A stretch of DNA of 64,000 nucleotides from Alphaproteobacteria bacterium (GCA_965214495.1 OZ243958.1:2338831-2402830); one strand, 5' to 3'; counted from the first letter of the stretch, positions 8,887 to 30,385 are shown. Translations and numbers: made by a program. Notes: generated from the letters alone by a model not told the origin.

Positions 8887-9595
8887 GCGATGATTTTGGA
8901 CATACCCTCTCGACTTGTCACGTCGTCTCGCTTCATACGGGGCGCGCTCCGAAAAGTCATTCGCCGGAGCACACTGCGCTGTTCGCGCCATGTTCTCGAT
9001 CGGCGGGTTCCTTCACCCCTTCCGGAGGGAGAACATTCACGGTCTCCACCGCGACCGTCAAACGAGACGGGCCGGCCGGCGTCTAGAGGCCCGGACGCCG
9101 CTTTGCGAAGACGGCGCCGACGGCGAACAGGAGTTCGCGCACTGGCGGTGGCGATACGCTCGCCGCCGCCCAATATCCTGCATACTAAGGCAAGACCGCC
9201 GATCCTTGGGGGTGGGCGTCGCGTGAAACTTATGCGGGCCGACCGCATGATCGTAACTGAGAGCGCCGGGTCGATACCAACACGGCGCCGACAACAACGG
9301 TAACCGCGAGGCCGCGCAGGATGACAGGGGCTCGGGCTCTCCCGCAGGCCGTCGGTGTTGGGCTTGAGGGCAACGCCGAGCGCTGCGACGGTCCTGCCCA
9401 AGGCGTTACGCCGCCGGCCTGCGCGACTTTTGTGATCGTCCCGGTCCCGGCCTTGCGCCCGCCGTTGCTGCGCAGCGCCGTCTTGACTATGCTGCATGGT
9501 GCGCCGGCTTCCTCGGCGATGCAGGCGAAGAACTTCGCCGTTTCCCTGAGAAAGCAGGAGCCGCTGAAGCCAGGCCCTGCATGCAGGAAATACCG

Positions 9596-9631
9596 CCCAA
9601 TGCGATTGTCGAACCCAATGCGATTGTCGAA
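9596..9631. repeat. perfect 18-bp tandem duplication (CCCAATGCGATTGTCGAA x2)
   Basis: Seen directly in the long GT2 / LRR-Wzy intergenic region. Confidence 0.7.
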
Positions 9632-9814
9632 CCCGATTCCCCTGGCGACTCCCGAGACATCGGCGTTCTCGTTGACAAAGGCAATCTCGGGTCGCAACGG
9701 CGGTATAGCCGTCAAGCGTATCGGCGGCCTCAAAGTTCATGGAACAGGTAGGGGCCGCATCAACCGTTCCCGGACTTCATCCTGCAGCACAACTGCCACG
9801 GCCGATAGAAGCAA

Positions 9815-12800
9815 GTGATCCTGTTCCGACATACGGCCTCGCTGGTGCGCCGCACCGAATCGCTTCAGGCCGCGCTGACCGCTGTCGCGTTCTGGACGCT
9901 GGCGGCGATAGCTCTGGCCGGCCTGCGGGATCTGCATCTTTGGGGGATGCCGCAGGTCGTGGGCGTCACCGCACGGGTGACCATGGCATGCGTAGCCGTT
10001 CTGGCGGGCCTGGCGGGAATCCGATGTCTGGCGGACCGGCCGAAGTCCGGCTTGCGCGCCTCGGTGCTGGGCGCAATAGGCGGAATGCCCGGCATGTTGT
10101 TGATCGGCGCGGTAGCCTCCTATCTGGCGATCGGCGTTGCCGTGATGGACGACGCGGACTGGACGCCGGACATGGCTGCGACAGTGCGGTATGCAGTCCT
10201 CTGTCTCGGTGTGCTCGTCGCCGCTGCGGTTGGCGGCCGCGCCATGCTGGAGCGGGTCGGGGCCGACCGGTTGTTGCGGGGCGTGCTTGTCGTCCTGATT
10301 GGGTGTTGCGCCCTCATTCTCGCTTCGCCGGTGCTGCGCGACCTCGGCGTCCTGGCGCCCTACAGAATCCCGTTCCGCCTGACCGGCGCTTTCACTAACC
10401 CCAACGACGCCGGCCTGGTCGCCTGCATGACGGCGGCTCTCGCCGCGGCGTTGCTGACCAATGGCGGGCCGCGCGGGCTCGGCTGGCTGGGCCTGGCCGC
10501 AGGCGTCGCCGCAGCCCTGGGGACGGCGTCCCGAACCGCTCTGGTCGTGCTCGGCGCGCTGGCGGTCCTGTTCCTGTTGCTCAACCTCCGCAGCAGACCG
10601 AGGGTTCTGGTTGCGACAGGCGTGGTATTGGCCGGGATCGCAGGATTTGTCGGCCTTGTGGGTTTCTCCGGCGGTCTTTCCGAATGGTCGAGGTTGCGGT
10701 CCGGCGCCACGCAAGAGGGAAGCCTGCTCTGCAATCCTTCGCCAACCGACAGGCGGGACTGCGCCGTCCTGCTGGCGGTGAGGGACACGCTGGCGGGGGA
10801 CATCGCCCTGAACTGGAGCCGCGCCCTGCCCGTCGAACGCTGGCAGGGCGTGACGACGGCCGGCCCGGAGGGGCGCGTTACCGAACTGCGTCTTGCGGGA
10901 CTGGGGTTGAACGGCCGCATTCCCCCGGAACTCGGCCGCCTGGACCGCCTGGAGTCGCTGTCCCTTCAGCGAAACCGGCTCACCGGGGGCATTCCGCCCG
11001 AACTGGGCGATCTGGCGAGCCTGCATCATCTGAATCTGGGCTTCAACGCCTTGACCGGAGCCGTCCCGCCGGAGCTGGCGAAGCCCAGGGACCTCTGGCG
11101 GCTACGGCTGAACCACAACCGCCTGACCGGGCCGCTCCCGGCCGCGCTCGGCGATCTCGGCCTGTCCGTCCTGCGCCTCCGGGGCAACGATTTCGACTCC
11201 ATTCCCCCCGGACTCGCCGCCGCCGACAGCGATTGGGCCGATGCGCAGCCTTGCCTGCCGCCGGCGCCGATGAACCGGGCATTGCTGGACGACTGCACAG
11301 CGCTGCTGGCGGCGAAGGAAGCGCTGGCCGGCGACGTCCCGCTCAACTGGCGCGCCGAGCTTCCCGTCGGCAAGTGGCAGGGCGTGACGGCGGGCGGTCC
11401 GGAGGGAGCCGTGACCGGGCTGGACCTCGGCAACAGGGGGCTGAACGGACGCATTCCCCCGGAACTCGGCAGGCTGAAGCGCCTCAGGACGCTGAACCTG
11501 GCCCGCAACCGGCTCACCGGCCCGATTCCGCCGGAGCTGGGACAGCTGACCGACCTGCGCGCATTGGCTCTGGACCGGAACGCCCTGACCGGCGCCGTCC
11601 CGGCGGAACTGGAACAACTCCCCGGACTCGCATCCCTGTGGTTGCGGGAGAACCGCTTCACCGGCCCCGTGCCGTCGGCGTTGTTCGACGTCCCCGAACA
11701 CGATCTCGGCCATTTCCTGTACTGCCTGCCGCCGCCGGCGCCCGGCCTGCCGCTATTCGACGACTGCGCGCTGCTGCTCGCGGTGAAAGAGACGCTGGCC
11801 GGCGACGCCCCGCTAAACTGGCGCGCGGCGCTTCCCGTAGGTTTGTGGCAAGGCGTGACCCTGGGCGGTCCGCAGGGGCGTGTGGCCGGGTTGGGCCTGC
11901 GCCGGAAGGGGCTGGACGGGCGCATTCCGCCGCAACTCGGCAAGCTGGAGGACCTCGAGTGGTTGGACCTGGCCGACAATCGGCTCACCGGCCCGGTTCC
12001 GCCGCAACTCGGCAAGCTGGAGGGCCTCAAGTGGTTGGATCTGGCCGACAATCGGCTCACCGGCCCGGTTCCGCCGGAGTGGGAGACTCTCATCCGGCTC
12101 GACGGCCTGCTGTTGGGAGGAAACAGTCTGGCCGGCCCCGTTCCGCCGCCGCTGCTCGATATCCCCGAACACGATCTCGGCCATTTGCTGTTCTGCTTTC
12201 CGCCGTTGCTGGCCGGCTCCGCCCTGCTTGAAGACTGCGAACGGCTGCTGGCGGCTAAAGGCGCACTGGCCGGCGATGCGCGGCTCAACTGGCGCCGTGC
12301 GCTGCCGATAGGCGAATGGCAGGGCGTGACTACAGGCGGCCCGCAAGGCCGGGTCGTCGCGCTGGAACTGCCACGAATGCGGCTGAACGGGCATATTCCC
12401 GCGGCGCTGGGAGGTCTCGCAGGTTTGCGAGCCCTGGAGCTTGACGCCAATGCGCTGACCGGCGCCATTCCGCCCGAGCTCGGGAAACTGGCCGATCTGG
12501 AAGCGCTCGGGCTTGCCGTCAACGCCCTGACCGGCCCGGTCCCTCCGGAACTGGGAAAGCTGCCCCACCTCAGGGAACTCCGGCTGGGCGGCAACCGCCT
12601 GACAGGCTCCCTGCCCCCGGGCCTGCGGGCGGCAGCAGTCGGGGGAGCGTCCTGCCCCGCCGCGCCTGCCGACAATCCCGCCCTGCGCGCCGACTGCGCG
12701 GTCCTGCTGGCGGCGAGGGACATCCTCGCCGGCGATGAGCGGCTCAACTGGAGCGAGCATGTCCCCATCGATTCCTGGCAGGGCGTTACGCTCGGCGGCT

Positions 12801-15800
12801 CGCCGAAGCGGGTGACGCGGCTCGAACTGTCCGGGTTGGATCTGAGCGGGCGCATCCCTTCGGAGTTGGGGCGGCTGAGCCGGCTCGTGATGTTGAACCT
12901 GAGCCGCAACCGGCTCACCGGCGGCATCCCGCCGGCATTGGGCGGACTGGACAAGCTCGAATCGCTTTTTCTCATGCGCAACTGGCTCACCGGCCCGGTG
13001 CCTCCCGAACTGGGGGCGTTGTCCGCTCTGGAGCGCCTGGTTCTCTCCTTCAACGCCTTGAGCGGCTCGATTCCGCCGGAACTGGGGAAGCTGCCGCATC
13101 TCAGGGAGTTGTGGCTGAAGCACAACCGCCTGACCGGCCCCGTGCCGCCGGAACTTGAAGGGCTGGACAATCTGGTCGTGCTGCGTCTCTCCGGCAACGA
13201 CCTGGACCGCCCCTACCCGCGGCGTCTTTTCAGGATCGCCGACCACGACCTCTTTCGCGACGGTCTGCGCCGCGGCCAGCCGCGAGGCGATGCGGGGGCG
13301 GCGGAGACGGCGGGCCGCCGGGAACCGGAGAGCGGCCCGCTTTGTCGTCCGGGTTCCGGAGGCGCCTCCGGCCTGGATGCCGACTGCGGCCTCCTGCTTG
13401 CGAACAGGGACATGCTGGCCGGCGGCGCGCCGCTCAACTGGAGCGAGCAGGTCCCCATCGACTTCTGGCGGGGCGTCACTGTCGGCGGCTCGCCGAAGCG
13501 CGTGACCGCCCTGGAATTGCCGCACGCGGGACTGGACGGGCGCCTGTTCGCGGCGCTCGGCGAATTGAACGGCCTCGTCGCCCTGGACCTGAGCGATAAC
13601 CGGCTCACCGGCCCCGCGCCGCCGGAACTGGAAAGGCTGGACAAGCTGGCCTTCCTGCGCCTCGCCGGCAACAATCTGGACCGGCCCTTCCCGCCGGCGC
13701 TCCGCAGGATTGCCGACCATGACCTGGACATGCCGGATTTCTGCCGGCCGCAGGCGATCGGTCCGGGCCTGCTCGCCGACTGCGCCCTCTTGTTGTCGGC
13801 AAGGGACACGCTCGCTGGCGATGCGCCGCTCAACTGGCGCCGCGATGCGCCGGTGGACGACTGGCAGGGGGTCGCCGTGGACCGTTCGCGCGGCCGGGTG
13901 GCGGCGCTGGACCTGACGCAGATGGGGTTGAACGGGCGCATTCCCGCGGAGCTGGGGCGGCTTGCCGGGCTCGTTTCGCTGCGCCTCAGCCGCAACCGGC
14001 TCGCCGGCGGCATCCCGCCCGAGCTCGGCAAGCTCGCCGGCCTGCGCGAGCTGGCCCTGGACGGCAACCTCCTGGCCGGCCCCGCGCCGCCGGAACTCGG
14101 CAAGCTGTCGAAGCTCATCGACCTGCGGCTGAACGGCAACCCCTTGACGGGCCCCACATCGGACCGCGGCCCGGACCTGCTCTGCCGGTCGTCGCTCGAA
14201 GGGCGCCTGCATGACGATTGCGCCCTGCTGCTGGAGATCCGGGACGAGCTGGCCGGCGATGTCGAACTGAACTGGAGCGAGGCGGTCCCGATCGACTATT
14301 GGCGGGGCGTTGCGATCGGCCTTGCCGCGGCCGCCGGCAAGGCCGGGGAAGGGACGCGCGTCATCGCCCTGGACCTGTCGCATATGGGGCTGAACGGGCG
14401 GATTCCGGCAAGGCTTGCGGCTCTGGACGCCCTTGCCGTCCTGCGTCTCGGCGATAACCGGCTTGCGGGGTCCATCCCGCCGGAACTGGGCGTCCTGGCC
14501 GGGCTGCGGACGCTGACCCTGGAGAACAACGCGCTGACAGGCAAGATCCCGCCGGAACTGGGCGCGTTGAAGGCGCTCGTTTCGCTGCGCCTCGGCGGTA
14601 ACGAACTCGCCGGCCGCACGCGGCAATTCGCCACCCTGGCCAACCTGCGCGTGCTCGCGCTGGAAAACAACCTGCTGACGGGCAATATCCATCCGCGGCT
14701 TGGCGGCCTTGAGCATCTGGAAGAACTGCTGCTGGAGAACAATCGCCTGCACGGAAAGATCCCCAGGGAACTCCACCGGTTGTCCCGCCTCGCGGTCCTC
14801 CGCCTGGGCGGCAACGCCCTTGCAGGCTGCATCGGGCGCGGCGCGGGTGCGGCGCGGGTGCGGCGCAACGACCTCGCTTCCGCCGACCTGCTCTGCGAAT
14901 CGCCGCCCTGGTCCAAGCCGGGCCTGTTCGACGATGGCGCGAGCCTGATGCGCCTGCGCGACATCCTTGCCGGCAATGCGGTGCTGGACTGGAGCTACGA
15001 GCGGCCCGTTGCGTCCTGGGAGGGCGTCACCATCGGAAACAGCGGCCGCGTCGCCGCACTGGACCTGCAGGACAGGAACCTGACCGGGCGGATCCCCGCG
15101 GAATTGGGCGAACTGCGCCATCTCCGGCGGCTGAGGCTCGACGGCAACCGTCTCACCGGCCCCATCCCCCCCGAACTGGGGAAACTGACACGGCTGGCCA
15201 TGCTGTCGCTGGAGGGCAACCGCCTGACAGGCGCCATCCCGCCGGAGGTCGCCAATCTGCCGAATCTCAGGCAATTATGGTTGGCCGACAACCGGCTCAC
15301 CGGTTCCATCCCGTTCGAATGGGCCCGTGTCCGGGGTGTCTCCCTGGCCGTCGCCGGCAACGACCTGGACAGCTGCATGGCGTGGGAACTGCGCAGCCTG
15401 CGCAGCAGCGATATCGATCACGGCACCGTCTGCACTTTCTTTATGAATCGCAGACCGTTCCTTTGGAGGCTCGGTTTTGAGAAGGCCATGGAGGCGCCCG
15501 TCTTCGGCCATGGCTTCTGGGCGCTGAAATATCTGGAAGGCGCTCCCCTCACCCATAGCGGCTTGCTGCCGGATCCTCACAATCTGTATATAAACTTGCT
15601 GGGAGAGGCCGGTATCGTCCCTCTGCTACTGTTTCTGTCCGCCATCGTCTTGCTTCTGCGCACACAATGGGTCACGCCGAAGTCGCTTGCCCGGGATGCG
15701 GCAGTGGCTTGGGTCATCGTCATCGTCCTGTATTGCATGACCTTCGCGCATCTGTTCGGCAACAAAGCATTCATGCTTATGGCCGGGTTGAGCGTCGCGA

Positions 15801-15847
15801 TAGGGGCGGTGCGGAATGCCGGAGACCGACGCCCTGAGAAAGCGTGA
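9815..15847 (+). CDS. giant O-antigen ligase/polymerase-family (Wzy_C/WaaL-like) membrane protein with a ~1550-aa periplasmic insertion of nine plant-type LRR modules
   Basis: The N-terminal ~300 aa are polytopic and carry the first Wzy_C half (...FTNPNDAGLVACMTAALAAALL...GTASRTALVVLGALAVLFLLL). The C-terminal ~160 aa carry the second half (RPFLWRLGFEKAMEAPVFGHGFWALKYLEGAPLTHSGLLPDPHNLYINLLGEAGIVPLLLFL, i.e. the R...FGxG...HNxYLxxLxExGixGlllfl signature) plus further TM helices. Between them lie nine modules of D-C-x-x-L-L-x-x-[KR]-[DE]-x-L-A-G-D-x-x-L-N-W...W-[QR]-G-V-T...GRV caps followed by 24-residue LxxLxxLxLxxNxLTGxIPPELGx repeats. TTG/ATG start uncertain. Confidence 0.8.
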   Translation: MILFRHTASLVRRTESLQAALTAVAFWTLAAIALAGLRDLHLWGMPQVVGVTARVTMACVAVLAGLAGIRCLADRPKSGLRASVLGAIGGMPGMLLIGAVASYLAIGVAVMDDADWTPDMAATVRYAVLCLGVLVAAAVGGRAMLERVGADRLLRGVLVVLIGCCALILASPVLRDLGVLAPYRIPFRLTGAFTNPNDAGLVACMTAALAAALLTNGGPRGLGWLGLAAGVAAALGTASRTALVVLGALAVLFLLLNLRSRPRVLVATGVVLAGIAGFVGLVGFSGGLSEWSRLRSGATQEGSLLCNPSPTDRRDCAVLLAVRDTLAGDIALNWSRALPVERWQGVTTAGPEGRVTELRLAGLGLNGRIPPELGRLDRLESLSLQRNRLTGGIPPELGDLASLHHLNLGFNALTGAVPPELAKPRDLWRLRLNHNRLTGPLPAALGDLGLSVLRLRGNDFDSIPPGLAAADSDWADAQPCLPPAPMNRALLDDCTALLAAKEALAGDVPLNWRAELPVGKWQGVTAGGPEGAVTGLDLGNRGLNGRIPPELGRLKRLRTLNLARNRLTGPIPPELGQLTDLRALALDRNALTGAVPAELEQLPGLASLWLRENRFTGPVPSALFDVPEHDLGHFLYCLPPPAPGLPLFDDCALLLAVKETLAGDAPLNWRAALPVGLWQGVTLGGPQGRVAGLGLRRKGLDGRIPPQLGKLEDLEWLDLADNRLTGPVPPQLGKLEGLKWLDLADNRLTGPVPPEWETLIRLDGLLLGGNSLAGPVPPPLLDIPEHDLGHLLFCFPPLLAGSALLEDCERLLAAKGALAGDARLNWRRALPIGEWQGVTTGGPQGRVVALELPRMRLNGHIPAALGGLAGLRALELDANALTGAIPPELGKLADLEALGLAVNALTGPVPPELGKLPHLRELRLGGNRLTGSLPPGLRAAAVGGASCPAAPADNPALRADCAVLLAARDILAGDERLNWSEHVPIDSWQGVTLGGSPKRVTRLELSGLDLSGRIPSELGRLSRLVMLNLSRNRLTGGIPPALGGLDKLESLFLMRNWLTGPVPPELGALSALERLVLSFNALSGSIPPELGKLPHLRELWLKHNRLTGPVPPELEGLDNLVVLRLSGNDLDRPYPRRLFRIADHDLFRDGLRRGQPRGDAGAAETAGRREPESGPLCRPGSGGASGLDADCGLLLANRDMLAGGAPLNWSEQVPIDFWRGVTVGGSPKRVTALELPHAGLDGRLFAALGELNGLVALDLSDNRLTGPAPPELERLDKLAFLRLAGNNLDRPFPPALRRIADHDLDMPDFCRPQAIGPGLLADCALLLSARDTLAGDAPLNWRRDAPVDDWQGVAVDRSRGRVAALDLTQMGLNGRIPAELGRLAGLVSLRLSRNRLAGGIPPELGKLAGLRELALDGNLLAGPAPPELGKLSKLIDLRLNGNPLTGPTSDRGPDLLCRSSLEGRLHDDCALLLEIRDELAGDVELNWSEAVPIDYWRGVAIGLAAAAGKAGEGTRVIALDLSHMGLNGRIPARLAALDALAVLRLGDNRLAGSIPPELGVLAGLRTLTLENNALTGKIPPELGALKALVSLRLGGNELAGRTRQFATLANLRVLALENNLLTGNIHPRLGGLEHLEELLLENNRLHGKIPRELHRLSRLAVLRLGGNALAGCIGRGAGAARVRRNDLASADLLCESPPWSKPGLFDDGASLMRLRDILAGNAVLDWSYERPVASWEGVTIGNSGRVAALDLQDRNLTGRIPAELGELRHLRRLRLDGNRLTGPIPPELGKLTRLAMLSLEGNRLTGAIPPEVANLPNLRQLWLADNRLTGSIPFEWARVRGVSLAVAGNDLDSCMAWELRSLRSSDIDHGTVCTFFMNRRPFLWRLGFEKAMEAPVFGHGFWALKYLEGAPLTHSGLLPDPHNLYINLLGEAGIVPLLLFLSAIVLLLRTQWVTPKSLARDAAVAWVIVIVLYCMTFAHLFGNKAFMLMAGLSVAIGAVRNAGDRRPEKA
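10757..15470 (+). repeat. intragenic array of nine tandem LRR modules (~400-700 bp each, diverged at DNA level, with near-identical 72-bp sub-repeats e.g. 11946-12089)
   Basis: Periodic protein motifs and repeated DNA strings, e.g. cggctcaccggcccggttccgccg recurring. Mirror ORFs on the opposite strand are by-products. Confidence 0.8.
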
Positions 15848-15850
15848 CCA

Positions 15851-17101
15851 TTGACCGGGAACAAGCTCCATGTTGGCTTCGCGCTGACCAACCTGAACGG
15901 CGGCGGCGCGGAGCGCGTCACACTCGACCTTGCGGCGGCACTCATCGCGCGCGGACACCGGGCAGACCTGGTCATCCCAAGCCTCGCGGGAGACTACCGG
16001 GCCGCGATTCCCCGCGGCGCGCGGCTGTATCGGGGGCGGTTTCCTCACACCGACAGGACGTTCCTGCGGGAGGTTCGCCGGGCGGGTGTCGAAGTGGAAG
16101 CGATGACCGTCAACCCATTCGGAGTCGCGCGGAGTTGGCTGGTCCTCGCCTGGAAACACCTTGGCATACGGGTGCAGCGCAAGCGTTCCCACTATGCTTC
16201 GGTCTATGTTTTGAACCGTTACCTCCGCGAAGCGTGTCCCGATGTGCTGGTATCGGGGTCGCGGGGCGCCAACGCCGCCGCGGTCTGCGCCACGGAGTTG
16301 ACGCGCCGGGCGGTTCCCGTGGTGGTCACGGTGCATAACAACATTGCCGCCGCTTATGAACCAGAATGGCTGGCCGCCGCCCGGAGTCTCTATCCGCTGG
16401 CCGACGCGGTGGTGGCGGTGTCCAAGGGCGCGGCGGAGTCTGTGCGACGGTCTGTGGGCGTGGACGCCGGGAGTATTCACACTATCTACAACCCCATCCC
16501 CGCTGACGGCATATGGCGCCTGGCGCAGGAGGAAGTCACACACCCCTGGTTTGCGGGCGGCGAGCCGCCGGTGATTCTGAGCGTCGGGCGTGAGGCGCCC
16601 CAGAAGGACTACCCCACCCTGGTGGAGGCGTTTGTGATAGCGAGACGCAAGGCGGCCGCACGGCTGGTTATCCTCGGCAAGCTCTCGGCACCCTACCGGG
16701 AAAAGCTCAAGTCCTTGGCGCGGGGCCATGGCGCGGAGGAAGACCTCGGTTTCATGGACTTCGACGAGAACCCGTTCCGCTACATGCGGCGGGCGGCGCT
16801 CCTTGCGCTCTCCTCGCGCTGGGAGGGCCTGCCGACGGTGATCCTGGAGGCGCTGGCCTGCGGCACGCCGGTGGTCAGCACCGACACGCCCTACGGCCCG
16901 CGCGAGATCCTTGGGCAGTGGGGCGAGTTGCCGCCGGTGGGCGACGCACCGGCGCTGGCGCGGGCGCTGGTCGCGACGCTGCGCGGCGAGCACCCACCGG
17001 AGGAAGCCTTGCGCGCGCGCGCCGCCGAGTTCTCCCCCGAGAAGGCCGCCGACGCCTACGAAGCACTATTCCGAAAGCTGGCGAGGGGGCGAGCACGGTG
17101 A
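15851..17101 (+). CDS. family 4 (GT-B, RfaB-like) glycosyltransferase, tandem paralogue 1
   Basis: TTG start 3 nt after the giant gene's stop. Carries the GT4 EX7E-type C-terminal domain (RWEGLPTVILEALACGTPVVSTD). ~416 aa. Confidence 0.9.
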   Translation: MTGNKLHVGFALTNLNGGGAERVTLDLAAALIARGHRADLVIPSLAGDYRAAIPRGARLYRGRFPHTDRTFLREVRRAGVEVEAMTVNPFGVARSWLVLAWKHLGIRVQRKRSHYASVYVLNRYLREACPDVLVSGSRGANAAAVCATELTRRAVPVVVTVHNNIAAAYEPEWLAAARSLYPLADAVVAVSKGAAESVRRSVGVDAGSIHTIYNPIPADGIWRLAQEEVTHPWFAGGEPPVILSVGREAPQKDYPTLVEAFVIARRKAAARLVILGKLSAPYREKLKSLARGHGAEEDLGFMDFDENPFRYMRRAALLALSSRWEGLPTVILEALACGTPVVSTDTPYGPREILGQWGELPPVGDAPALARALVATLRGEHPPEEALRARAAEFSPEKAADAYEALFRKLARGRAR

Positions 17102-18357
17102 GATCGGATAGACTCCAAGTCTGCATCACGGTAACCAGTCTGGCCGGCGGCGGAGTAGAGCGCAACATTCTCCGTCTGGCACGGTCACTCATCGAACGAG
17201 GACATCGGGTGGACTTGGTGATCCCCCGGTTCGCAGGAGACTACCTGGCGGCGATACCCGGTGAAATGCGTATCTGGCGGGCGCGGATGCCCGGCACCGA
17301 TAGGGCGTTCTTGCGAAAGGTCCGGCGGGCAGGAATCGAGGTGGAGGCGATGACCGTCAACCCCGTCGGCGCTGCGTGTGCCTGGCTGGCTCTCGCCCGG
17401 AAGCATCCCGGGATACCGGTCATACGCGGCAGCGGCATGCGCTCCATCTATCCCTACGCCCATGTTCTGGCTCGCTACCTTCGCGAGGAACGGCCCGACG
17501 TGCTGGTGTCGGCGCATATGGGCCCCAACGCCGTTGCGGTCTGCGCCGCCGAACTGACGGACCGGGCCGTTTCGACGGTGATCACTGTGCGCAATAACGT
17601 CGCCGCCGGCTATGCGCCGCATTGGTTGGCAGCGGCCCGGACGCTCTATCCGCTTGCCGACGCCGTGGTGTCGGTGTCCAGGGGTGTGGCGGAGTCTGTG
17701 CGGCGGTTCGTGGGCATGGATGCCGACCGTGTCCACACCATCTACCACCCCATCCCTGCAGACAGCATATGGCGCCTGGCGCAGGAGGAAGTCACGCACC
17801 CCTGGTTCGCGGGCGGCGAGCCGCCGGTGATTCTGAGTGTCGGGCGCGAGGCGTTGCAGAAAGATCGCCCCACGTTGGTGAAGGCGTTCGGTTTGGCGCG
17901 GCGCGAGGTGAATGCGCGGCTGGTGATCCTCGGCAAGCTGTCGGCCGCCTACCGGGAAAGGCTGCGGTCCCTGGCGCGGAGCCATGGCGCAGCCGAGGAC
18001 CTGGGCTTCGTGGACTTCGACGAGAACCCGTTCCGCTACATGCGGCGGGCGGCGCTCTTTGCGCTGTCCTCGCGCTGGGAGGGCCTGCCGACGGTGGTCA
18101 TCGAGGCGCTGGCCTGCGGCACGCCGGTGGTCAGCACCGATGCGCCCTACGGCCCGCGCGAGATCCTTGGGGGGTGGGGCGGGTTGCCGCCGGTGGGCGA
18201 CGCGCCGGCGCTGGCGCGGGCGCTGGTTGCGACGCTGCGCGGCGAGCACCCGCCGGAAGAAGCCTTGCGTGCGCGCGCCGCCGACTTTTCCGATGACAAG
18301 GCCACTGACGCCTACGAAGCGCTGTTCGAGAAGCTGGTGAGAGAGCGCGCGCGGTGA
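17098..18357 (+). CDS. family 4 glycosyltransferase, tandem paralogue 2
   Basis: GTG start overlaps the paralogue-1 stop (GTGA). The N-terminus VRSDRLQVCITVTSLAGGGVERNILRL parallels paralogues 1 and 3. Confidence 0.9.
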   Translation: MRSDRLQVCITVTSLAGGGVERNILRLARSLIERGHRVDLVIPRFAGDYLAAIPGEMRIWRARMPGTDRAFLRKVRRAGIEVEAMTVNPVGAACAWLALARKHPGIPVIRGSGMRSIYPYAHVLARYLREERPDVLVSAHMGPNAVAVCAAELTDRAVSTVITVRNNVAAGYAPHWLAAARTLYPLADAVVSVSRGVAESVRRFVGMDADRVHTIYHPIPADSIWRLAQEEVTHPWFAGGEPPVILSVGREALQKDRPTLVKAFGLARREVNARLVILGKLSAAYRERLRSLARSHGAAEDLGFVDFDENPFRYMRRAALFALSSRWEGLPTVVIEALACGTPVVSTDAPYGPREILGGWGGLPPVGDAPALARALVATLRGEHPPEEALRARAADFSDDKATDAYEALFEKLVRERAR

Positions 18358-19649
18358 GGCAGGACAAGCTTCAAGTCAGCTTCCTGCTGACCGGCATGAA
18401 CGGTGGCGGGGCGGAGCGCAGTATTCTCCGATTGGCCCGGTCGCTTATTGAGCGCGGGCACCGGGCAGATCTGGTGATCCCCAAATTCGCGGGAGACTAC
18501 CGGGCTGCGGTCCCCAGCGGAATGCGCGTCTGGCGGGCGCGGCTTCCCGGCACCGACAGGAATCTGCTGCGGGAGGTGCAGCGGGCGGGAACCGAGGTGA
18601 AGGCGATGACTGTCAACCCCATCGGTGTCGCCCGCACTTGGCTGGCTCTCGCCGGGAAAGGCTTCAACCTGCCCGTTCGAAGTCATCACCGCATCGCTGC
18701 GTATGCATACATGATCGCCACGTACGTTCGTGAGGCGCGTCCTGATGTGCTGGTGTCAGCGCTGCCGGGCGCCGACACCGCCGCTGTCTGCGCCGCGGCG
18801 TTGACGGACCGGGCCGTTCCTGTGGTGGTCACGGTGCGCATCAACATCGTCGCCGACTATACGCCGGAATGGCTGGCCGCTTGCCGAACCCTCTATCCGC
18901 GGGCCGATGCGGTGGTGACGATATCCCGAGGCGTGGGCGAGTCCGTGCGGCAATCGATGGGGGTGGATGCCGGGCGCGTTCGCACCATCTACAACGGCGT
19001 TCCTGTCGACAGCATACGACAGCTGGCGCAGGATGAAGTCACGCACCCGTGGTTCGCAGACGGCGAGCCGCCGGTGATCCTGAGCGTCGGGCGCGAGGCG
19101 TTGCAGAAAGATCACCCCACGTTGGTGAAGGCGTTCGGTTTGGCGCGGCGCGAGGTGAACGCGCGGCTGGTGATCCTCGGCAAGCTGTCGGCCGCCTACC
19201 GGGAAAGGCTCAAGTCCCTGGCGCGGAGCCATGGCGCGGAGGAGGACCTGGGCTTCGTGGACTTCGACGAGAACCCGTTCCGCTACATGCGGCGTGCGGC
19301 GCTCTTTGCGCTCTCCTCGCGCTGGGAGGGCCTGTCGATGGTGGTCATCGAGGCGCTGGCCTGCGGCACGCCGGTGGTCAGCACCGATGCGCCCTACGGC
19401 CCGCGCGAGATCCTGGGCGGGTGGGGCGACCTGCCGCCGGTGGGCGACGCGCCGGCGCTGGCGCGGGCGCTCGTCGCGACGCTGCGCGGCGAGCACCCGC
19501 CGGAGGAAGCCTTGCGCACGCGCGCCGCCGACTTTTCCGATGACAAGGCCGCCAACGCCTATGTCGCGCTGTTCCGGGAGCTGGTGCAGGAGCGCGCGGT
19601 GAAGCCGGATACACTTCCTGTCATTCCGGGAGAACCGGCGCAGCCATGA
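18354..19649 (+). CDS. family 4 glycosyltransferase, tandem paralogue 3
   Basis: GTG start overlaps the paralogue-2 stop. The C-terminal half is almost identical at DNA level to paralogue 2. Confidence 0.9.
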   Translation: MRQDKLQVSFLLTGMNGGGAERSILRLARSLIERGHRADLVIPKFAGDYRAAVPSGMRVWRARLPGTDRNLLREVQRAGTEVKAMTVNPIGVARTWLALAGKGFNLPVRSHHRIAAYAYMIATYVREARPDVLVSALPGADTAAVCAAALTDRAVPVVVTVRINIVADYTPEWLAACRTLYPRADAVVTISRGVGESVRQSMGVDAGRVRTIYNGVPVDSIRQLAQDEVTHPWFADGEPPVILSVGREALQKDHPTLVKAFGLARREVNARLVILGKLSAAYRERLKSLARSHGAEEDLGFVDFDENPFRYMRRAALFALSSRWEGLSMVVIEALACGTPVVSTDAPYGPREILGGWGDLPPVGDAPALARALVATLRGEHPPEEALRTRAADFSDDKAANAYVALFRELVQERAVKPDTLPVIPGEPAQP

Positions 19650-21019
19650 CGCCGCAAGAGCCGGACAGGCCGGCCGGCCCGCGCACGACCGGCGGACAGG
19701 ATGCGGCCATCGTGTTCGCAACCCAGGCCGGCAGGGTCGTGTTCGGCGTGGCGATCCAGAGCCTCCTGGCCTACACGCTGTTGCCGGAAGGGCGGGGCAG
19801 CTTCGCCGTATGCGTCGTGTTCGCTCACGTTCTCGCCGTGCTCTTCACACCGGGGGCGCGGGAAGGCGCGCAATATTTCGTCATGACAGGGCAGGCGTCG
19901 GTTTCGGAAGGGACCGCCTCCGCCCTGGCGGTCTGCCTCGCCGGCGGGGCTCTGGCGGTCGCCCTGGCGGCCCCGTTCGTCCACAGCGAAACAGCGTTCT
20001 TCCAGCAGGCGGAGCCGAGCGCCTTCTATCTGGCGTTGGCGCTGGTTCCCGTCATGGCGTTCTCGGGTGCGCTGGAGCGCCAACTCGCCGCGCTCCGGCG
20101 TTTCGGGCATCTCGCGGCGTTCACCCTGCTCCATGTCGCCGTGAACGTTCTTGCGCTCCTGGTTCTCGTGCCGGTTTGGGAACTCGGGGTGGACGGCGCG
20201 ATCCTGGCGGCCGCCGCCGCGCACGGTTTTTCGGTGGCGTTACCAATATGGTATCTGCGGCGCCGCCATGGACTGGTTCCGACGAACCCGTTCCGCGCCG
20301 TCTCGTCGCGAATCGTCGGCTACGGGCTGCGATTCCACGCCGCAGGCATAGGCATCGCGCTGGAAATGAGTGCGGGCATCCTCATTCTCGGGCTTTTCGC
20401 CAGCCCGGCGGAAATCGGCCTGTTCGCAACCGCGAGCATCCTCATGTTTCGACTGAAAATGATCTCGGACTCGGTCGGCAGCGCGCTGCTGCCCCGTATC
20501 GCCGGCAGCGGCCGCCCGGAACTGACGGCGCTCTGCCTGCGGCTCGTTCTGTGCGCCACCGCGGCCGCGTGTCTCGCCGTGCTGGCGGTAAGCGCGCCGC
20601 TGGTCCGGATCCTCTTCTCCGAAGCCTTCCTGCCGGCGGTCCCGCTGCTGTGGATTATCGCCCTCGGAGTGCTCGCCTGTGCCGGCGCCGGCATACTCGG
20701 AACCTACTTCAAGGCTATCGACCGCCCGGGCATCTGCTCTTGGGCTGTCTCCCTGGGAGTGGCGGCGAATCTCCTTGCGATTCCCCTGCTCTACCCGGCG
20801 GTCGGCGTCGCGGCCGCGGCTTGGGGGCTGACCCTGGGCATGGCCTGCCGGCTCGTCCTTCTCGCGGCGGCGTTCGCAAGACAGGCCCGAATGACCCGGT
20901 TCTCAATCTGGCTGCCGCAGGCCGGCGATGCGGTCTCCGCCTGGCAAGCGGTCCGGGCTGCGCTCGGCGCCCGAACGCTTCGCGAGGCGGTATTCGACAA
21001 TCGCCGGCCGGGGTGTTGA
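19646..21019 (+). CDS. Wzx-like polysaccharide flippase (MOP/PST family polysaccharide biosynthesis protein)
   Basis: ATG overlaps the GT4-3 stop (ATGA). 457 aa with ~12 predicted TM helices. N-terminal ...LLAYTLLPEGRGSFAV... matches the PST-family LLAR-L-PE-G signature. Confidence 0.85.
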   Translation: MTPQEPDRPAGPRTTGGQDAAIVFATQAGRVVFGVAIQSLLAYTLLPEGRGSFAVCVVFAHVLAVLFTPGAREGAQYFVMTGQASVSEGTASALAVCLAGGALAVALAAPFVHSETAFFQQAEPSAFYLALALVPVMAFSGALERQLAALRRFGHLAAFTLLHVAVNVLALLVLVPVWELGVDGAILAAAAAHGFSVALPIWYLRRRHGLVPTNPFRAVSSRIVGYGLRFHAAGIGIALEMSAGILILGLFASPAEIGLFATASILMFRLKMISDSVGSALLPRIAGSGRPELTALCLRLVLCATAAACLAVLAVSAPLVRILFSEAFLPAVPLLWIIALGVLACAGAGILGTYFKAIDRPGICSWAVSLGVAANLLAIPLLYPAVGVAAAAWGLTLGMACRLVLLAAAFARQARMTRFSIWLPQAGDAVSAWQAVRAALGARTLREAVFDNRRPGC

Positions 21020-21287
21020 GGCATGAACATCCTCCGGCCGATCCCCATGAGGATGCTGCCGCGCGGGCCGCGGGGCGACAGGAAGTTGCGCCGACGGTTG
21101 CCAGCGGCAGATGCCGCACGAGTCCAGCGCGGAATTGCGGAGTCCGTCAGGGTGTGCGGGTTCGCCATGGCCTCGTCGCTCAAATTAACCTTGCCCGTTC
21201 CGCGCCGCGCCCTTTGACGGCGGGACAGACAATCCGGGCGCGGCAGCCGGAATCGATGCTTCTACCATAGAACGGACAGTAAGAACC

Positions 21288-22412
21288 ATGACGGGCCCCT
21301 CCAATACTCGCGGAAAAATCAAAATTGCCTATGTGATATCGACACTTTGGAGATGCGGCCCATCCATTCAGCTAAAAAACATCTTGCGGCATATGGATTA
21401 CGACAGATTCGAGGTGTCCATAATAACTCTTTCTCCCGAAAGGAAAGATGACTCCCTCATAGGTGAGATTGAATGTCTTCCTCCAAGGATATACCCGCTT
21501 AATATGAGTAGAATTCTCGGATTATTCCGGATGAAAAAACGCTTCCAAGACATAATTGAGTTAATCCATCCGGATCTGATACATAGCTCCGGTTGGCGAA
21601 GCGACACTCTCGTATCGAAATTGAATCGGTCCGCCGTCTGGATTGCAACGTGCAGAAACATTCCCGATATCGACTATCCCTTGGAGTTCGGGAAATATCC
21701 AGGAGCATATATGGCAAGAAGCCATCTAAGGGCTCTGGGAAGATGCGGCAATGTTGTATGCTGCTCGAATTCCATGAAGGCTGAATATGAACAACGCTAT
21801 GGTATGAAAGACGCTTTGGTAGTCCCGAATGGAGTAGAGCTGCCCCAGGATATCGCCAGTGCGTGTGCAGAAAGAAATGGGAACTTCAGAGGCGTGACGG
21901 TAGGCCGGTTGGTTCCTCGGAAGAATGTTCGGTATTTATGTGAGGTTTTCAAGAGACTGGATAACAACAATACAAGGTTGACCGTTATCGGGGATGGACC
22001 GGAATACGGCGATCTTACACGTTATGAAGACAATAGAATATCGCTCGTCGGGCATCGGGGCGAAGACGATGTGTACAGATATCTGCACGGGTCCGACTTC
22101 TTTATGAGCGCGTCATTAGGAGAAGGATTGCCGAATGCCGTATTGGAAGCATTGTCGATGGGGCTTCCCTGTGTGCTTTCCGACATCGGCCCGCATCTCG
22201 AATTGAGGGATGCCATGCCGCCCGGAAGCGTAGAGATTTTCTCCCTGTCCGATCCTCCCGATGCGGTTGCATATAGATTGAAGGACTATTTGGCGACTAT
22301 TGCGAGCCTGCCAAGGGAACAGATCAGGCAGCGAACCGTGGAGAAATACTCGGCGAAAAGGATGTCACAGCGCTATCAGGCATTGTATTCAAGCATCCGA
22401 GCGGCCGCCTGA
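21288..22412 (+). CDS. family 4 glycosyltransferase, compositionally foreign (low GC)
   Basis: 374-aa GT4 (…GEGLPNAVLEALSMGLPCVLSD…). Strikingly AT-richer than its surroundings, with a different codon style. Preceded by a 268-bp gap. Confidence 0.85.
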   Translation: MTGPSNTRGKIKIAYVISTLWRCGPSIQLKNILRHMDYDRFEVSIITLSPERKDDSLIGEIECLPPRIYPLNMSRILGLFRMKKRFQDIIELIHPDLIHSSGWRSDTLVSKLNRSAVWIATCRNIPDIDYPLEFGKYPGAYMARSHLRALGRCGNVVCCSNSMKAEYEQRYGMKDALVVPNGVELPQDIASACAERNGNFRGVTVGRLVPRKNVRYLCEVFKRLDNNNTRLTVIGDGPEYGDLTRYEDNRISLVGHRGEDDVYRYLHGSDFFMSASLGEGLPNAVLEALSMGLPCVLSDIGPHLELRDAMPPGSVEIFSLSDPPDAVAYRLKDYLATIASLPREQIRQRTVEKYSAKRMSQRYQALYSSIRAAA

Positions 22413-22689
22413 GCATGATCGCTTCTTTCACCGTTAGTCCGAGGGGGCGGGAAAGGCTGCCGATGAGAAAGGTGAAGAGGGTTGCCGGGCGTTCGACCCT
22501 AACGAGGCTTACCGCGGAACCCGAACCGCCGGCGCTCCCGGGGTTTCGACGAGGAGCCGTTCGTCCTTTCACACCACGATACCGGAGGGTTTGGTATCAA
22601 GGGGGGTTTCGCCGCTGCCCGCGTGCAGAGGCGTGGAGAGGGCGACGGCTGCCGGGCTCTCCGGCGGAGAGGCCCCAGCGGGAATTTGG

Positions 22690-22990
22690 AGAATCGCTCG
22701 CCCGGACCGTTGAAGAGGCAATAGCGCACGCGCTGTTGCACGGGGGCGAGACGCAGGTGTGGGGCGACGCGGGCTATCGGGGGGGCGGCAAGCGCGAGGA
22801 GAACCGGGGGGCGGCGGAGAGGCGCAAGGCGTCGGTGCGGGCGAAGGGGGGAGCATCCGTTCCTGTATGTGAAAGCACCATTTCGGCTATGCGAAGCTGC
22901 GCTACCGGGGGCTGGCGAAGAACCGGCAGCGCATCGCCGTGCTGCTCGGGTTGGCCAACCTGCTCATCGCCGGGCGCTATGCTGCCGGCT
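22690..22990 (+). pseudogene. IS5-family transposase C-terminal remnant (frameshifted, internally deleted)
   Basis: ...ALLHGGETQVWGDAGYRGGGKREENRG... then in other frames ...EHPFLYVK.. and ..HHFGYAKLRYRGLAKNRQRIAVLLGLANLLIAGRYAAG*. These reproduce the IS5 DDE-tail consensus (LHGxExxVxGDxGYxG ... EHPF ... FGYxKxRYRGLAKN). Confidence 0.55.
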
Positions 22991-23233
22991 GAGGCAGGGC
23001 CCGTCTGTCCGCCACCGCCGCAAGGCGGGACGGGGCATTTGGCCCAGTCTTCGAGCGGTGCTCACCCCCTCTTTCGACACGAAAAGACATGGCTGCGCCT
23101 GTCGAACAGTTGTCGGCCTTTCCCGCACGAACCGAATACGCCCCGCGCAAGCCAAAACCTGGTATGTTCAGACCTTCCCTAACGACCGACGGCAGGTGGC
23201 GACGGCAATGACACGGCCCATGAAGAGCGCGGC

Positions 23234-25234
23234 ATGTGCGGCATAGCCGGTTTTCTTGGAACAGGACCTCTCTCGCCGGAGGCGGCGTCATCGACCGCCC
23301 GCGGGATGGCGGACCGGCTGGCGCATCGCGGTCCCGACGATGCCGGGGTCTGGCTGGATCCCGGGGCAGGGGCCGCTCTCGCGCATCGCCGTCTGGCGGT
23401 CGTCGATCTTTCGCCGGCCGGCCACCAGCCAATGCGGTCCGCTTCCGGGCAACGGGTGATCGTCTTCAATGGCGAGATCTACAACCATCGGGACCTCAGA
23501 CGCCAGCTCGACTCCGATCGTCAGGAGATCTCCTGGCGGGGGCATTCCGATACGGAAACGCTGCTGGCCGCCATCGAGTGCTGGGGACTGGAGGAGGCGT
23601 TGCGGGCATCCGCCGGCATGTTCGCCCTTGCCCTCTGGGATCGCCAAGACCGGACCCTCTGGCTGGCCCGCGACCGGGCCGGAGAAAAGCCGCTCTACTA
23701 CGGCTGGCAGAACGGCGTGTTCCTGTTCGGCTCCGAGTTGAAGGCGCTCGCGGCGCATCCCGCATTTGCGGGAGACATCGACCGAGGCGCACTCGCCCAG
23801 CTCCTGCGCCATGGCTATGTTTCGTCCCCCTGGTCCATATACGAAGGCATTCGCAAGCTGCCGCCGGGTACATGCCTCAGGATAGCCGTCGGCGCTGCAG
23901 GCCGGCAGGGGGGCGATCTGCCCGAGCCGCGGCCGTACTGGTCGTTGCAGGACGCGATAGCCGCGGGCCGGGCCGGACCGTTCCAGGGCGCTCCCGAAGA
24001 AGCGGTTGATGTCCTGAACGACCTGTTGCTGCGGTCGGTTAGCCGGCAGATGGTCGCGGACGTTCCGCTTGGCGCGTTCCTGTCCGGCGGGATCGATTCC
24101 TCGACCGTCGTGGCATTGATGCAGGCGCAATCCACGCGGCCGGTGCGGACGTTCACCATTGGATTCGATGAGGCCGAATACAACGAAGCGCCATACGCCA
24201 AGGCAGTGGCGAGCCACTTGGGAACCGAACATACGGAGCTGTACGTCTCGGCGCACCAGGCGCTGGACGTCGTTCCGCGCCTGCCGAACCTTTTCGACGA
24301 GCCCTTTGCCGATCCCTCGCAGATTCCGACCTTTCTTGTAGCCGGGATGGCGCGCCGGCATGTGACCGTGGCCCTGTCCGGGGACGGCGGCGACGAGCTG
24401 TTCGGCGGCTACCATCTGTATTCTCGGACGCTACGATACTGGCGCCGGTTGTCCAACGCGCCGTTGCCGCTGCGCCGCCTCCGCGAGGGCGCGCTCCGGG
24501 CCCTCGCTGCGGTCTCGGGCACTACACTGGGGGAGCGCCTGCTTCGCCGGCTGCCCCCAATCTACGGTTGGCGCTGGACACCCGACAGGCTCGGCAAGCT
24601 GGCGGCCATGGTCACCTGCCGGACGCAGGAAGAGTTCTATTGGCAAGGCCGCTCGTCCTGGCCGAATCCGCACGCGATCATGCACGGAACGTCCCTGTCG
24701 GGAGCCGTCATGAACGAACCGGCAAGCTGTGTGGGTGCGTTGGAATTCGCGGAGTGGATGATGGCGGCCGATACTCTGAACTATCTTCCCGACGACATTC
24801 TGGTCAAGGTTGACCGGGCGGCGATGGCCGTCAGCCTTGAGACGCGCGCGCCGTTTCTGGACCACGATGTCGTGGAATTTGTCTGGCGGCTGCCGTTGTC
24901 GTTGAGGATCCGCGGCGCCGAGAGCAAGTGGATTCTTCGGCAGGTACTCCGCAAGTACCTGCCGATGCGGCTCGTCGATCGTCCGAAGGCGGGATTCGGT
25001 GTGCCGCTCGCCTCGTGGTTGCGCGGCCCCCTCCGGGACTGGGCGGAGGCATTGCTCGACGAACGCCGGCTGCGGGAGGAAGGGTTTTTCGATCCCGGTC
25101 CGGTTCGCCGGACGTGGCTTGCATTCCTGAAAGCGCACGATGAGTACGCCGGTTTGGCGCAACGCCTCTGGAACATCCTGATGTTCCAGGCGTGGCTGGA
25201 ACGTTCTCCCCGGTGCGGGCCGCGAGAGCCCTGA
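23234..25234 (+). CDS. asnB: asparagine synthase (glutamine-hydrolysing)
   Basis: MCGIAGF N-terminal nucleophile, class II GATase domain, SGGIDSS PP-loop. 666 aa. Confidence 0.92.
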   Translation: MCGIAGFLGTGPLSPEAASSTARGMADRLAHRGPDDAGVWLDPGAGAALAHRRLAVVDLSPAGHQPMRSASGQRVIVFNGEIYNHRDLRRQLDSDRQEISWRGHSDTETLLAAIECWGLEEALRASAGMFALALWDRQDRTLWLARDRAGEKPLYYGWQNGVFLFGSELKALAAHPAFAGDIDRGALAQLLRHGYVSSPWSIYEGIRKLPPGTCLRIAVGAAGRQGGDLPEPRPYWSLQDAIAAGRAGPFQGAPEEAVDVLNDLLLRSVSRQMVADVPLGAFLSGGIDSSTVVALMQAQSTRPVRTFTIGFDEAEYNEAPYAKAVASHLGTEHTELYVSAHQALDVVPRLPNLFDEPFADPSQIPTFLVAGMARRHVTVALSGDGGDELFGGYHLYSRTLRYWRRLSNAPLPLRRLREGALRALAAVSGTTLGERLLRRLPPIYGWRWTPDRLGKLAAMVTCRTQEEFYWQGRSSWPNPHAIMHGTSLSGAVMNEPASCVGALEFAEWMMAADTLNYLPDDILVKVDRAAMAVSLETRAPFLDHDVVEFVWRLPLSLRIRGAESKWILRQVLRKYLPMRLVDRPKAGFGVPLASWLRGPLRDWAEALLDERRLREEGFFDPGPVRRTWLAFLKAHDEYAGLAQRLWNILMFQAWLERSPRCGPREP

Positions 25235-26079: not shown

Positions 26080-26156
<77 letters not shown>

Positions 26157-27226: not shown

Positions 27227-28240
27227 CTACATATATTCTCCGATCAGCGACTCGGCGATCTGCACCGTGTTGAGTGCGGCTCCCTTGCGCAGATTGTCGG
27301 CGACCACCCACAGGTTGAGCGCCCAGGGGACCGTCGGATCCGCGCGCACGCGGCTGACGAAAACGTCGAACTCGCCGACGCAGTCCACCGGCGTCGCGTA
27401 GCGTTCCTCTTCGGGTTCGTCGATCAGTCGCACTCCGGGTGCGTTGGCGAGCGCGGCGCGGGCTTCCTCGACCTCGATCGGGGTTTCGAACTCCACGTTC
27501 ACCGCCTCGGCGTGGCCGACGAACACCGGCACGCGCACGCAGGTTGCGGAAACGACGATCTCCGGATCCAGGATTTTCTGCGTCTCCTGAACCATCTTGC
27601 GCTCTTCGCCGGTCGAGCCGTCGTCCAGAAACCGGTCGATCTGCGGAATGGCGTTGAAGGCGATGCGGCGCGAGAACGACTGCGGCCGGTGCTCTTCCTG
27701 GAAATAGACCTTGCGGGTCTGGTCGAACAGTTCGTCCATGGCCGCCTTGCCGGCGCCGGAAACCGACTGATAGGTCGCCACCACCACGCGCTTGATGCGG
27801 GCGATGTCGTGCAGGGGCTTCAGCGCCACCACCATCTGGATGGTCGAGCAGTTGGGGTTGGCGACGATGTTGTGGGCGCGAAAGCCGTCAAGCGCCTCCG
27901 GGTTGACCTCCGGCACCACGAGTGGCACGTCCGGTTCCATGCGGAAGCGCGAACTGTTGTCCACAACCACACAACCGGCGGCAGCGGCGACCGGCGCGTA
28001 GATATCGGAGACCTTCGAGCCGGGGGAAAACAGGCCGAGATCGACGCCCTCGAAATCGAAATCGTCGAGCGGACGAACCTTGAGCACGTCCCTGTCGCCG
28101 AACGAGACTTCGCGGCCGACCGACCGTTCGGACGCCAGCGCGAACACCTCGTCGGCGGGGAAATTGCGCTCCGCGAGGATGGCGAGGATCTCCCGCCCGA
28201 CATTGCCGGTGGCGCCCGCCACCGCGACTCGATATCCCAT
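27227..28240 (-). CDS. asd: aspartate-semialdehyde dehydrogenase
   Basis: [17 protein letters not shown]..., active-site NCSTI motif, 337 aa. Confidence 0.95.
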
Positions 28241-28290
28241 CGTTTTCCGCTGCGGCCTCCGTGCTATACTGGCCCGGCGGAGGGTCGCCC

Positions 28291-29725: not shown

Positions 29726-29747
29726 GTGGTTTCCCCCTCCGCGTCGC

Positions 29748-30359: not shown

Positions 30360-30385
30360 GAGCCTCTCCGTCGTCGGCAGGCGGT

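Follow-up and report, generated by a model that had tools for sequence, protein, structure and literature searches.

The sequence analysed here is a 64,000-nucleotide stretch of a chromosome from an Alphaproteobacteria bacterium (GCA_965214495.1, OZ243958.1:2338831-2402830), hereafter referred to as the window. We focused on three consecutive genes on its plus strand, g1, g2 and g3, which are predicted to encode retaining GT-B glycosyltransferases of glycosyltransferase family 4 (GT4). The triplet lies between a gene for a membrane protein containing leucine-rich repeats (LRR) and a Wzy_C domain and a gene for a multi-transmembrane (multi-TM) protein; these five genes form the block discussed below. 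The g1 gene (15851-17101) encodes 416 amino acids (aa) from a TTG start located 3 nt past the stop of the upstream LRR-Wzy_C gene, and the position of this start agrees with the ATG/TTG starts of the orthologues in two related loci, L004 and L001. The g2 gene (17098-18357; 419 aa) begins with GTG in a GTGA overlap with the g1 stop. An open reading frame (ORF) of 479 aa from 16918 is the g2 frame extended back into g1, and the g2 start was placed at 17098 because of homology. The g3 gene (18354-19649; 431 aa) also begins with GTG in a GTGA overlap, and its end overlaps the next gene, at 19646, through ATGA. An original prediction made from this sequence had described three head-to-tail GT4 paralogues with 4-nt overlaps, and the ORFs, the Pfam domains and the three overlaps (GTGA, GTGA and ATGA) confirmed this arrangement.

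Each of the three proteins matched Glyco_transf_4 (PF13439) in its N-terminal part with 74-80 bits and Glycos_transf_1 (PF00534) in its C-terminal part with 88-94 bits, all above the cut-offs. The EX7E motif was present as EGLPTVILE in g1 (residue 325), EGLPTVVIE in g2 (residue 328) and EGLSMVVIE in g3 (residue 325). The AlphaFold2 (AF2) model of g3 had a GT-B fold with a terminal helix at residues 396-416 (predicted local distance difference test score (pLDDT) 87.7; predicted template modelling score (pTM) 0.87), and a Foldseek search with this model returned BshA, WaaB, MshA, PglH, PglA and PimA at the top (probability 1.00, TM-scores 0.6-0.8, 15-20% identity). Because the domains, the motif, the modelled fold and the GT4 structural matches agree, the GT4 label is sound. 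No curated NCBIfam equivalog applies to g1, g2 or g3: the best match, the PglJ profile, gave 97-110 bits against a cut-off of 500, the second-best match of all three genes, TIGR03088 (stp2), gave 80-92 bits against 409, and the PglH profile gave 31-41 bits against 600 (NCBIfam NF050063, NF050056: PglJ/PglH/PglA equivalogs), all below the thresholds. A match to PF20706 (GT4 of conflict systems) scored 42-44 bits against a cut-off of 26, covering only positions ~137-312 of the 385-position profile and lying beneath stronger generic GT4 matches. An anti-phage defence function, which this family would suggest, is not supported, PADLOC having returned no match for any of the five block proteins. 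The g3 protein also has a C-terminal extension of ~16 residues (…VKPDTLPVIPGEPAQP, window 19600-19649), which is absent from orthologues of 412-413 aa. The extension runs into the ATGA overlap with the next gene, where L001 has a 13-nt gap, and residues 418-431 of this tail had pLDDT < 50 in the AF2 model.

We compared the three genes on codon-aligned nucleotides and scored site patterns three-way across g1, g2 and g3. In codons 1-210, nucleotide identity was 54-83% in every pair. In codons 241-390, g2 and g3 were 92-98% identical, and g1 showed 78-87% identity to g2 or g3 in codons 241-300 and 88-94% in codons 301-390; in the last ~28 codons all copies were divergent again. The domain-wise alignments therefore bore out the mosaic conservation that had been proposed. 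The site patterns followed the same course: g1 equalled g2 at aligned nt 631-720, g2 equalled g3 with g1 as the odd copy at nt 721-900, and all three were alike at nt 901-1170. Maximum-chi-square breakpoints were significant in every pair, the observed value being reached in 0/2000 permutations, and the g2/g3 split separated 196/669 differences on the left from 40/576 on the right. The tracts, all on the plus strand, comprise the g1 share of the three-way homogenised region (16742-17011; codons 301-390), identified by its 92-94% nucleotide identity to g2 and g3, and the C-domain tracts of g2 (17818-18267) and g3 (19065-19514; both codons 241-390). The first 180 nt of the g2 tract are common to g3 only. 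A separate short tract joins g1 (16472-16561) and g2 (17728-17817) at codons ~211-240, where this pair is 89% identical versus 74-80% for the pairs with g3. The C-terminal halves of g2 and g3 had been described as nearly identical, and this holds as 93-96% identity over ~450 bp, although the longest perfect run is 75 bp. Among the sequences quoted in support, a 29-mer is exact in g2 and g3, whereas a 41-mer mismatches g1, g2 and g3 by 2, 1 and 3 positions, respectively. The first copy was said to be clearly diverged, which is correct for its N half; however, g1 takes part in the homogenisation in codons 301-390, where it reaches 92-96% identity to g2 and g3, and shares the short tract with g2. 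In extent, the homogenised part matches the Glycos_transf_1 domain, the donor-binding domain of GT-B enzymes.

Synonymous divergence (dS, Nei-Gojobori) followed the same partition. For all three pairs, dS was 0.64-0.84 in codons 1-230 and 0.13-0.16 in codons 301-390; in codons 241-300 it was 0.13 for g2/g3 and 0.50-0.65 for the pairs with g1. For the g1 tract, the corresponding comparison was 0.13-0.16 versus 0.64-0.73 in the N half. Compared between the N and C parts, synonymous differences gave p = 5e-12 in a Fisher test for g2/g3, with the pairs ranging from 5e-12 to 1e-5. The ratio of nonsynonymous to synonymous divergence (dN/dS, omega) among the window copies was 0.14-0.45 across all regions. 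Positive selection on the N halves gave no sign at pairwise resolution, omega being 0.2-0.6 everywhere. The G+C content at third codon positions (GC3) was 0.89-0.94 in the converted domain versus 0.75-0.77 in the N half. In single-copy homologues the difference was only +0.01 to +0.08 (a small sample), and the larger rise in the window agrees with GC-biased conversion.

A scan of one genome per species gave 33 related loci, six of which (L001-L006) were used for neighbour-joining trees with bootstrap. The g1-g2-g3 order is kept in L001, L003, L004 and L006, with the same 4-nt overlaps in three of them and a single-base g1/g2 overlap in L004; L002 and L005 hold rearranged versions. Beyond these loci, the family counts more than 2000 homologues; more than 120 protein clusters of 71-88% identity were found on long contigs of the European Nucleotide Archive (ENA), and on plasmids of cultured organisms the best relative had 35% identity and was annotated as 'glycosyltransferase' only. 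In the N-half trees and identity matrices, genes clustered by position over the six related loci, with a bootstrap of 100 within the closest group: window g2 and L001 g2 were 92% identical, as were window g3 and L001 g3, and the paralogues 71-72%. In the C-half tree, genes clustered by genome, as window g2 with g3 (100), L002 gA with gC (99), L004 g1 with g2 (100) and L006 g2 with g3 (78). The phylogeny with orthologues that the original prediction proposed as a check thus grouped the N half by position and the C half by genome. Consistently, dS between window g2 and L001 g2 was 0.18 in the N part and 0.32 in the C part, and dS between window g2 and window g3 was 0.84 and 0.14, respectively, which is the reverse of the orthologue pattern. 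That is, inside the tract same-genome paralogues are closer than between-genome orthologues, and outside the tract the relationship is reversed. We are confident that the mosaic is due to interlocus gene conversion within an old triplet, and the part of the original prediction that invoked gene conversion was upheld by the drop in dS, the tree incongruence and the reversal between orthologues and paralogues.

Similar tracts were found elsewhere. Younger, separate tracts comprise 420 identical bp in L002 and 473 identical bp in L004, and the tracts differ among L002, L004 and L006, indicating independent events. In 17 contigs that hold both g2-type and g3-type proteins, identity in the C domain was 90.0% within contigs versus 86.6% across contigs (p = 0.0011), and in the N half it was 72.4% versus 70.5% (p = 0.16). 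Several observations weigh against conversion as the full explanation. The same-contig excess in the C domain is modest, at 3.5 points. Conversion is not confined strictly to the C domain, as g2 and g3 of L006 are 87-93% identical in nt 1-300 and the g1/g2 tract of L004 begins at nt 509. Moreover, distant single-copy homologues from other phyla also match the C domain better than the N half (75-80% versus 56-62% nucleotide identity), and paralogues on different contigs are also closer in the C domain (86.6% versus 70.5% amino-acid identity). Together with the low omega throughout, the latter two observations are those expected if purifying selection acted alone, with the donor-binding domain more constrained than the acceptor-binding domain and no exchange of sequence. 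However, selection at the protein level does not cut dS five-fold (Fisher p = 5e-12 for g2/g3), it does not make paralogues closer than orthologues, as in the bootstrap of 100 for window g2 with g3 and the reversal of dS, and it does not yield the perfect runs of 420 and 473 bp in other genomes. In our view, the dS and tree results refute selection as the sole cause, and we regard that explanation as very unlikely. Because the C domain is also constrained in single-copy homologues, conversion explains the excess of similarity and not the whole contrast.

A head-to-tail order with an identical overlap structure and a high C-terminal identity would also be expected if the genes had been duplicated in tandem recently, or duplicated in assembly, and their N halves had then diverged fast. 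However, the N-half dS of 0.64-0.84 and omega of 0.3-0.45 leave no burst of amino-acid change, and each copy has its own orthologue in the same order, with 88-92% (g2, g3) or 78% (g1) nucleotide identity. The copies are also too different, at ~30% of N-half positions, to be a collapsed or expanded repeat, and the same triplet occurs in independent long-read chromosomes; assembly duplication is therefore excluded. We give this explanation almost no weight, and the recent duplication suggested originally was not borne out. Because of the N-half dS and the order conserved in L001, L003, L004 and L006, the triplet is old and stably maintained.

The N half of g1 (window 15851-16540) shares only 78% identity with the orthologues in L001, L003 and L002, compared with 88-92% for g2 and g3 and their orthologues, and a more distant allele may have taken the place of the left part of the block. 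This bears on a further explanation, in which the similar C segments were imported from outside by homologous recombination with horizontally acquired copies of the block. The block is mobile and can occur twice per chromosome (L001 and L003 on OZ243972), and the outlying g1 N half, at 78% versus 92% for g2 and g3, suggests allelic replacement. Nevertheless, within the converted tracts each window copy has another window copy as its nearest relative, none of the external sequences sampled comes closer, and the same pattern of nearest relatives was found in L002, L004 and L006. We therefore consider import from outside highly improbable.

Recurrent non-reciprocal recombination between the copies, or interlocus gene conversion, thus affects their C-terminal, donor-binding Glycos_transf_1 domains. 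Three tracts can be told apart in this genome: one brought g3-like sequence into g2 (codons ~241-300), another homogenised all three copies (codons ~301-390) and a third joined g1 and g2 (codons ~211-240). The g3 tract is the probable donor of the g2 sequence because the pair of window g2 and g3 is sister to the g3 orthologues of L001 and L003 (bootstrap 78). The events date to about the time when the lineage split from its nearest relative, with 4-7% divergence since then. The process is ordinary interlocus gene conversion, which is already known for tandem paralogues. Interlocus conversion with mosaic divergence has been described for HMA4 of Arabidopsis halleri (PMC3749932; bioRxiv 10.1101/2025.10.29.685298), and long-lasting concerted evolution for mammalian gene pairs (PMC2720389). 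In those cases, as here, stretches in which paralogues are closer lie beside stretches that keep diverging, and conversion affects only part of the gene. Those cases are eukaryotic, whereas here the tracts follow the domain boundary of a bacterial GT-B enzyme and, unlike in those cases, recur independently in several genomes that share one horizontally spread block.

One part of the N domain stayed distinct throughout. In the bin of nt 301-450, identity was 59-75% in all 21 within-genome pairs, with none above 75%; between the window genes and their L001 orthologues, the same bin was 92-96% identical for g2 and g3 and 81% for g1. The corresponding segment, residues ~100-145, consists of a basic loop and a long helix of the N domain and is located on the plus strand at 16148-16285 in g1, where it forms the least similar bin in most within-genome pairs. 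In g2 it spans 17395-17541, including a three-residue GSG insertion in the loop, and is 96% identical to the L001 g2 orthologue and 59-68% identical to the paralogues. In g3 it lies at 18651-18788. In a comparison of 31 g2-type and 86 g3-type proteins, six positions were at least 85% conserved within each group yet different between the groups, all at residues 106-141, and in the AF2 model they fall in the basic loop 102-110, helix 111-128 and helix 138-150. Residues ~100-145 escape conversion in every genome examined and define three orthologous types. The diversification of acceptor specificity put forward originally found no support as an ongoing process, as the N halves are stable orthologous groups under purifying selection (omega 0.27-0.44) and the differences concentrate in this single segment of ~45 residues.

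In PglH, both the membrane and the pyrophosphate of the lipid-linked acceptor are bound by a 'ruler helix' (K68, R72, K75; PMC5792488). In a profile alignment, residues 120-406 of the present family stand opposite PglH 78-353, and because of this offset residues ~100-119 would lie at the position of the ruler helix. This placement suggests that the differences between the three paralogues lie at the site where such enzymes recognise the lipid-linked acceptor, and residues ~100-145 probably set acceptor choice. The segment may be spared because selection removes convertants or because identity is too low for heteroduplex formation.

The triplet belongs to a larger unit. The window from ~9800 to 20968, spanning the triplet with the LRR-Wzy_C gene before it and the multi-TM gene after it, aligns in one piece. 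Its nucleotide identity is 85% to L001, 79% to L006, on a chromosome labelled Gemmatimonadota, and 75.5% to L004, on one labelled Longimicrobiales. A rearranged block is also present in L005, on a chromosome labelled Pseudomonadales, and OZ243972 carries the block twice. Outside the block nothing aligns in L004 or L006. Between the window block and these copies, dS was only 0.4-1.0, far below the expectation for different phyla, indicating that the block moved horizontally. We infer that the whole five-gene block was transferred between unrelated bacteria of the same communities; the Alphaproteobacteria- and Longimicrobiales-labelled chromosomes come from one assembly, ERZ25070786. The labels of the related metagenome-assembled chromosomes (Alphaproteobacteria, Gemmatimonadota, Longimicrobiales, Pseudomonadales) are record titles only, which tempers this interpretation. 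In five loci the right end of the block falls at 20960-20968, where its last gene ends. The block ends yielded no repeat or att-like site, and in all loci block and flanks were alike in G+C, giving no compositional sign of foreign origin.

Mobile elements were observed in and beside several copies of the block. In L039 (1-1297), the closest relative, two tandem tyrosine-recombinase genes (Arm-DNA-bind_3 and Phage_integrase) lie directly upstream of the block. In L002 (8339-10004), an insertion of ~1.65 kb with perfect 14-nt terminal inverted repeats (GTAACTGCCCAGGT) and an ORF of ~500 aa splits the middle GT4 gene near codon 250 and is probably an insertion sequence. In L003, the second block copy on OZ243972, the g3 orthologue contains an insertion of ~175 bp (10076-10250) that has terminal inverted repeats (AAGGCTTATCCC ... 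GGGATAAGCCTT), together with a TCTCCGA duplication, and looks like a miniature transposable element. In L034-L036 (7199-9025), a DDE_3 transposase is located beside a C-terminal GT4 fragment of 143-154 aa, followed by a full-length copy. The window itself has a transposase gene with DUF772 and DDE_Tnp_1 at 45773-46816 on the plus strand, and the same domain pair occurs in a gene beside the block in L039 (15198-16337).

The upstream gene of the block (9815-15847, plus strand) encodes a protein of 2010 aa that matched Pfam LRR families and Wzy_C (PF04932; 46.7 bits against a cut-off of 31.7). Hydropathy indicated two groups of hydrophobic segments, about ten within residues 19-282 and two within 1928-1981; that is, the Wzy_C core, which is O-antigen ligase/polymerase-like, is interrupted by ~1600 aa of LRR in roughly nine repeated modules. 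Each module has a cap like 'LLxxKxxLAGDxxLNW...WQGVT' followed by 'LxGxIPxELGxL' repeats, and these modules resemble the LRRs of plant receptor kinases. The gene accompanies the triplet in L001-L006, is conserved beside it in all related loci and has a tandem duplicate in L037 and L038. The downstream gene (19646-21019, plus strand), which overlaps g3 through ATGA, encodes a protein of 457 aa with 12-13 hydrophobic segments in a hydropathy scan. It had no Pfam match in the window; its orthologue in L038 had a weak Polysacc_synt match, and the protein is possibly a Wzx-type flippase.

Gene calls in the window were checked by a GC3 filter. The cluster is flanked by housekeeping genes, with a class II ribonucleotide reductase (240-3749) on the left and asd, leuB and leuC (27227-31798) on the right. 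Left of the block, the minus strand carries a GFO/IDH/MocA oxidoreductase (6745-7797), a glycosyltransferase of family 2 (GT2; 7873-8991) and a UDP-glucose/GDP-mannose dehydrogenase remnant (8886-9740). The remnant has the central domain in one frame (9233-9733), a very weak C-domain match (E = 0.1) in another frame and no N-terminal NAD-binding domain, and it directly adjoins the shared block on the left, as though the arrival of the block had truncated the gene. Right of the block, window 21000-23200 has a lower G+C content (0.60 versus 0.67 for the window) and contains a fourth GT4 gene unrelated to the triplet (21288-22412) and an ORF of 255 aa without a family match (22415-23182). An AsnB-type amidotransferase follows (23234-25234), which resembles TIGR03108 of the XrtA system (539 bits against a cut-off of 817). 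A tRNA-Met gene (26080-26156, minus strand) lies ~850 bp past this last gene of the polysaccharide cluster and may be a site of island integration. Among the window ORFs scanned, no integrase, chain-length regulator or exosortase was found.

Because of its layout, we infer that the block would constitute a compact Wzx/Wzy-type unit. As in Wzx/Wzy clusters, predicted cytoplasmic glycosyltransferases are flanked by a membrane protein of the Wzy_C family and a multi-TM protein that is a candidate flippase, with GT2, GT4, sugar oxidoreductase and AsnB-type amidotransferase genes nearby; the Wzy_C protein here differs in carrying ~1600 aa of LRR modules. The triplet also resembles PglA, PglJ and PglH of Campylobacter jejuni, GT4 paralogues of one locus that use one donor (UDP-GalNAc), extend one undecaprenyl-pyrophosphate-linked glycan sequentially and differ in acceptor (PMC5792488). 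PglJ was the best NCBIfam match, PglH (6eji) and PglA (8dqd) were among the sequence and fold matches, and PglH has, roughly where residues ~100-145 lie here, the N-domain helix that binds the acceptor pyrophosphate. However, identity to these enzymes is only 15-20% and the NCBIfam scores fall well short of the cut-offs. The Pgl paralogues are old and dissimilar, and no homogenisation has been reported for them, whereas the triplet here is homogenised, and the likeness does not extend to PglB, in place of which the block uses a Wzy_C protein. A likeness to PEP-CTERM/XrtA systems through TIGR03088 (stp2) is given by the second-best match and by the neighbouring AsnB-like gene near TIGR03108, all scores being below the cut-offs. 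No paper describing the five-gene block or this GT4 family was found in the literature, and papers on Neisseria lgt and H. pylori fut offered no precedent for conversion between bacterial glycosyltransferase genes.

By analogy with these systems, the three enzymes would act in sequence at the cytoplasmic face of the membrane on an undecaprenyl-pyrophosphate-linked oligosaccharide, using the same or very similar nucleotide sugars and differing in acceptor. Flipping of the product would fall to the downstream multi-TM protein, and its polymerisation or ligation to the LRR-Wzy_C protein encoded upstream. Two points speak against this model: the flippase assignment comes from one weak Polysacc_synt match in the L038 orthologue, and no initiating phosphoglycosyltransferase was seen among the Pfam-scanned ORFs, which are a subset of the window ORFs, so that one may lie elsewhere in the genome. 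We regard the chances for and against the sequential, same-donor model as about even. A broader and more speculative proposal, which we hold only tentatively, is that the block is a horizontally circulating 'surface glycan plus LRR' module common to unrelated phyla of one host-associated community, to which it would give a common surface structure. Conversion would hold the three transferases on one donor, and selection would protect the short segment that reads the acceptor and determines the order of the sugars, the counterpart of the PglH ruler helix. The mix of taxa, like bin names such as COS4_ and RHO1_, is reminiscent of marine-sponge microbiomes, a sponge origin being a conjecture and not a result.

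The triplet provides a clean natural case in which conversion acts on one domain of a two-domain enzyme and a short distinguishing segment stays protected. It points to residues ~100-145 as probable determinants of acceptor choice in an uncharacterised GT4 family, and it implies that whole-length trees of such tandem glycosyltransferases will mislead on orthology. The horizontally shared block with its LRR-Wzy_C gene may hold more interest than the mosaic itself.

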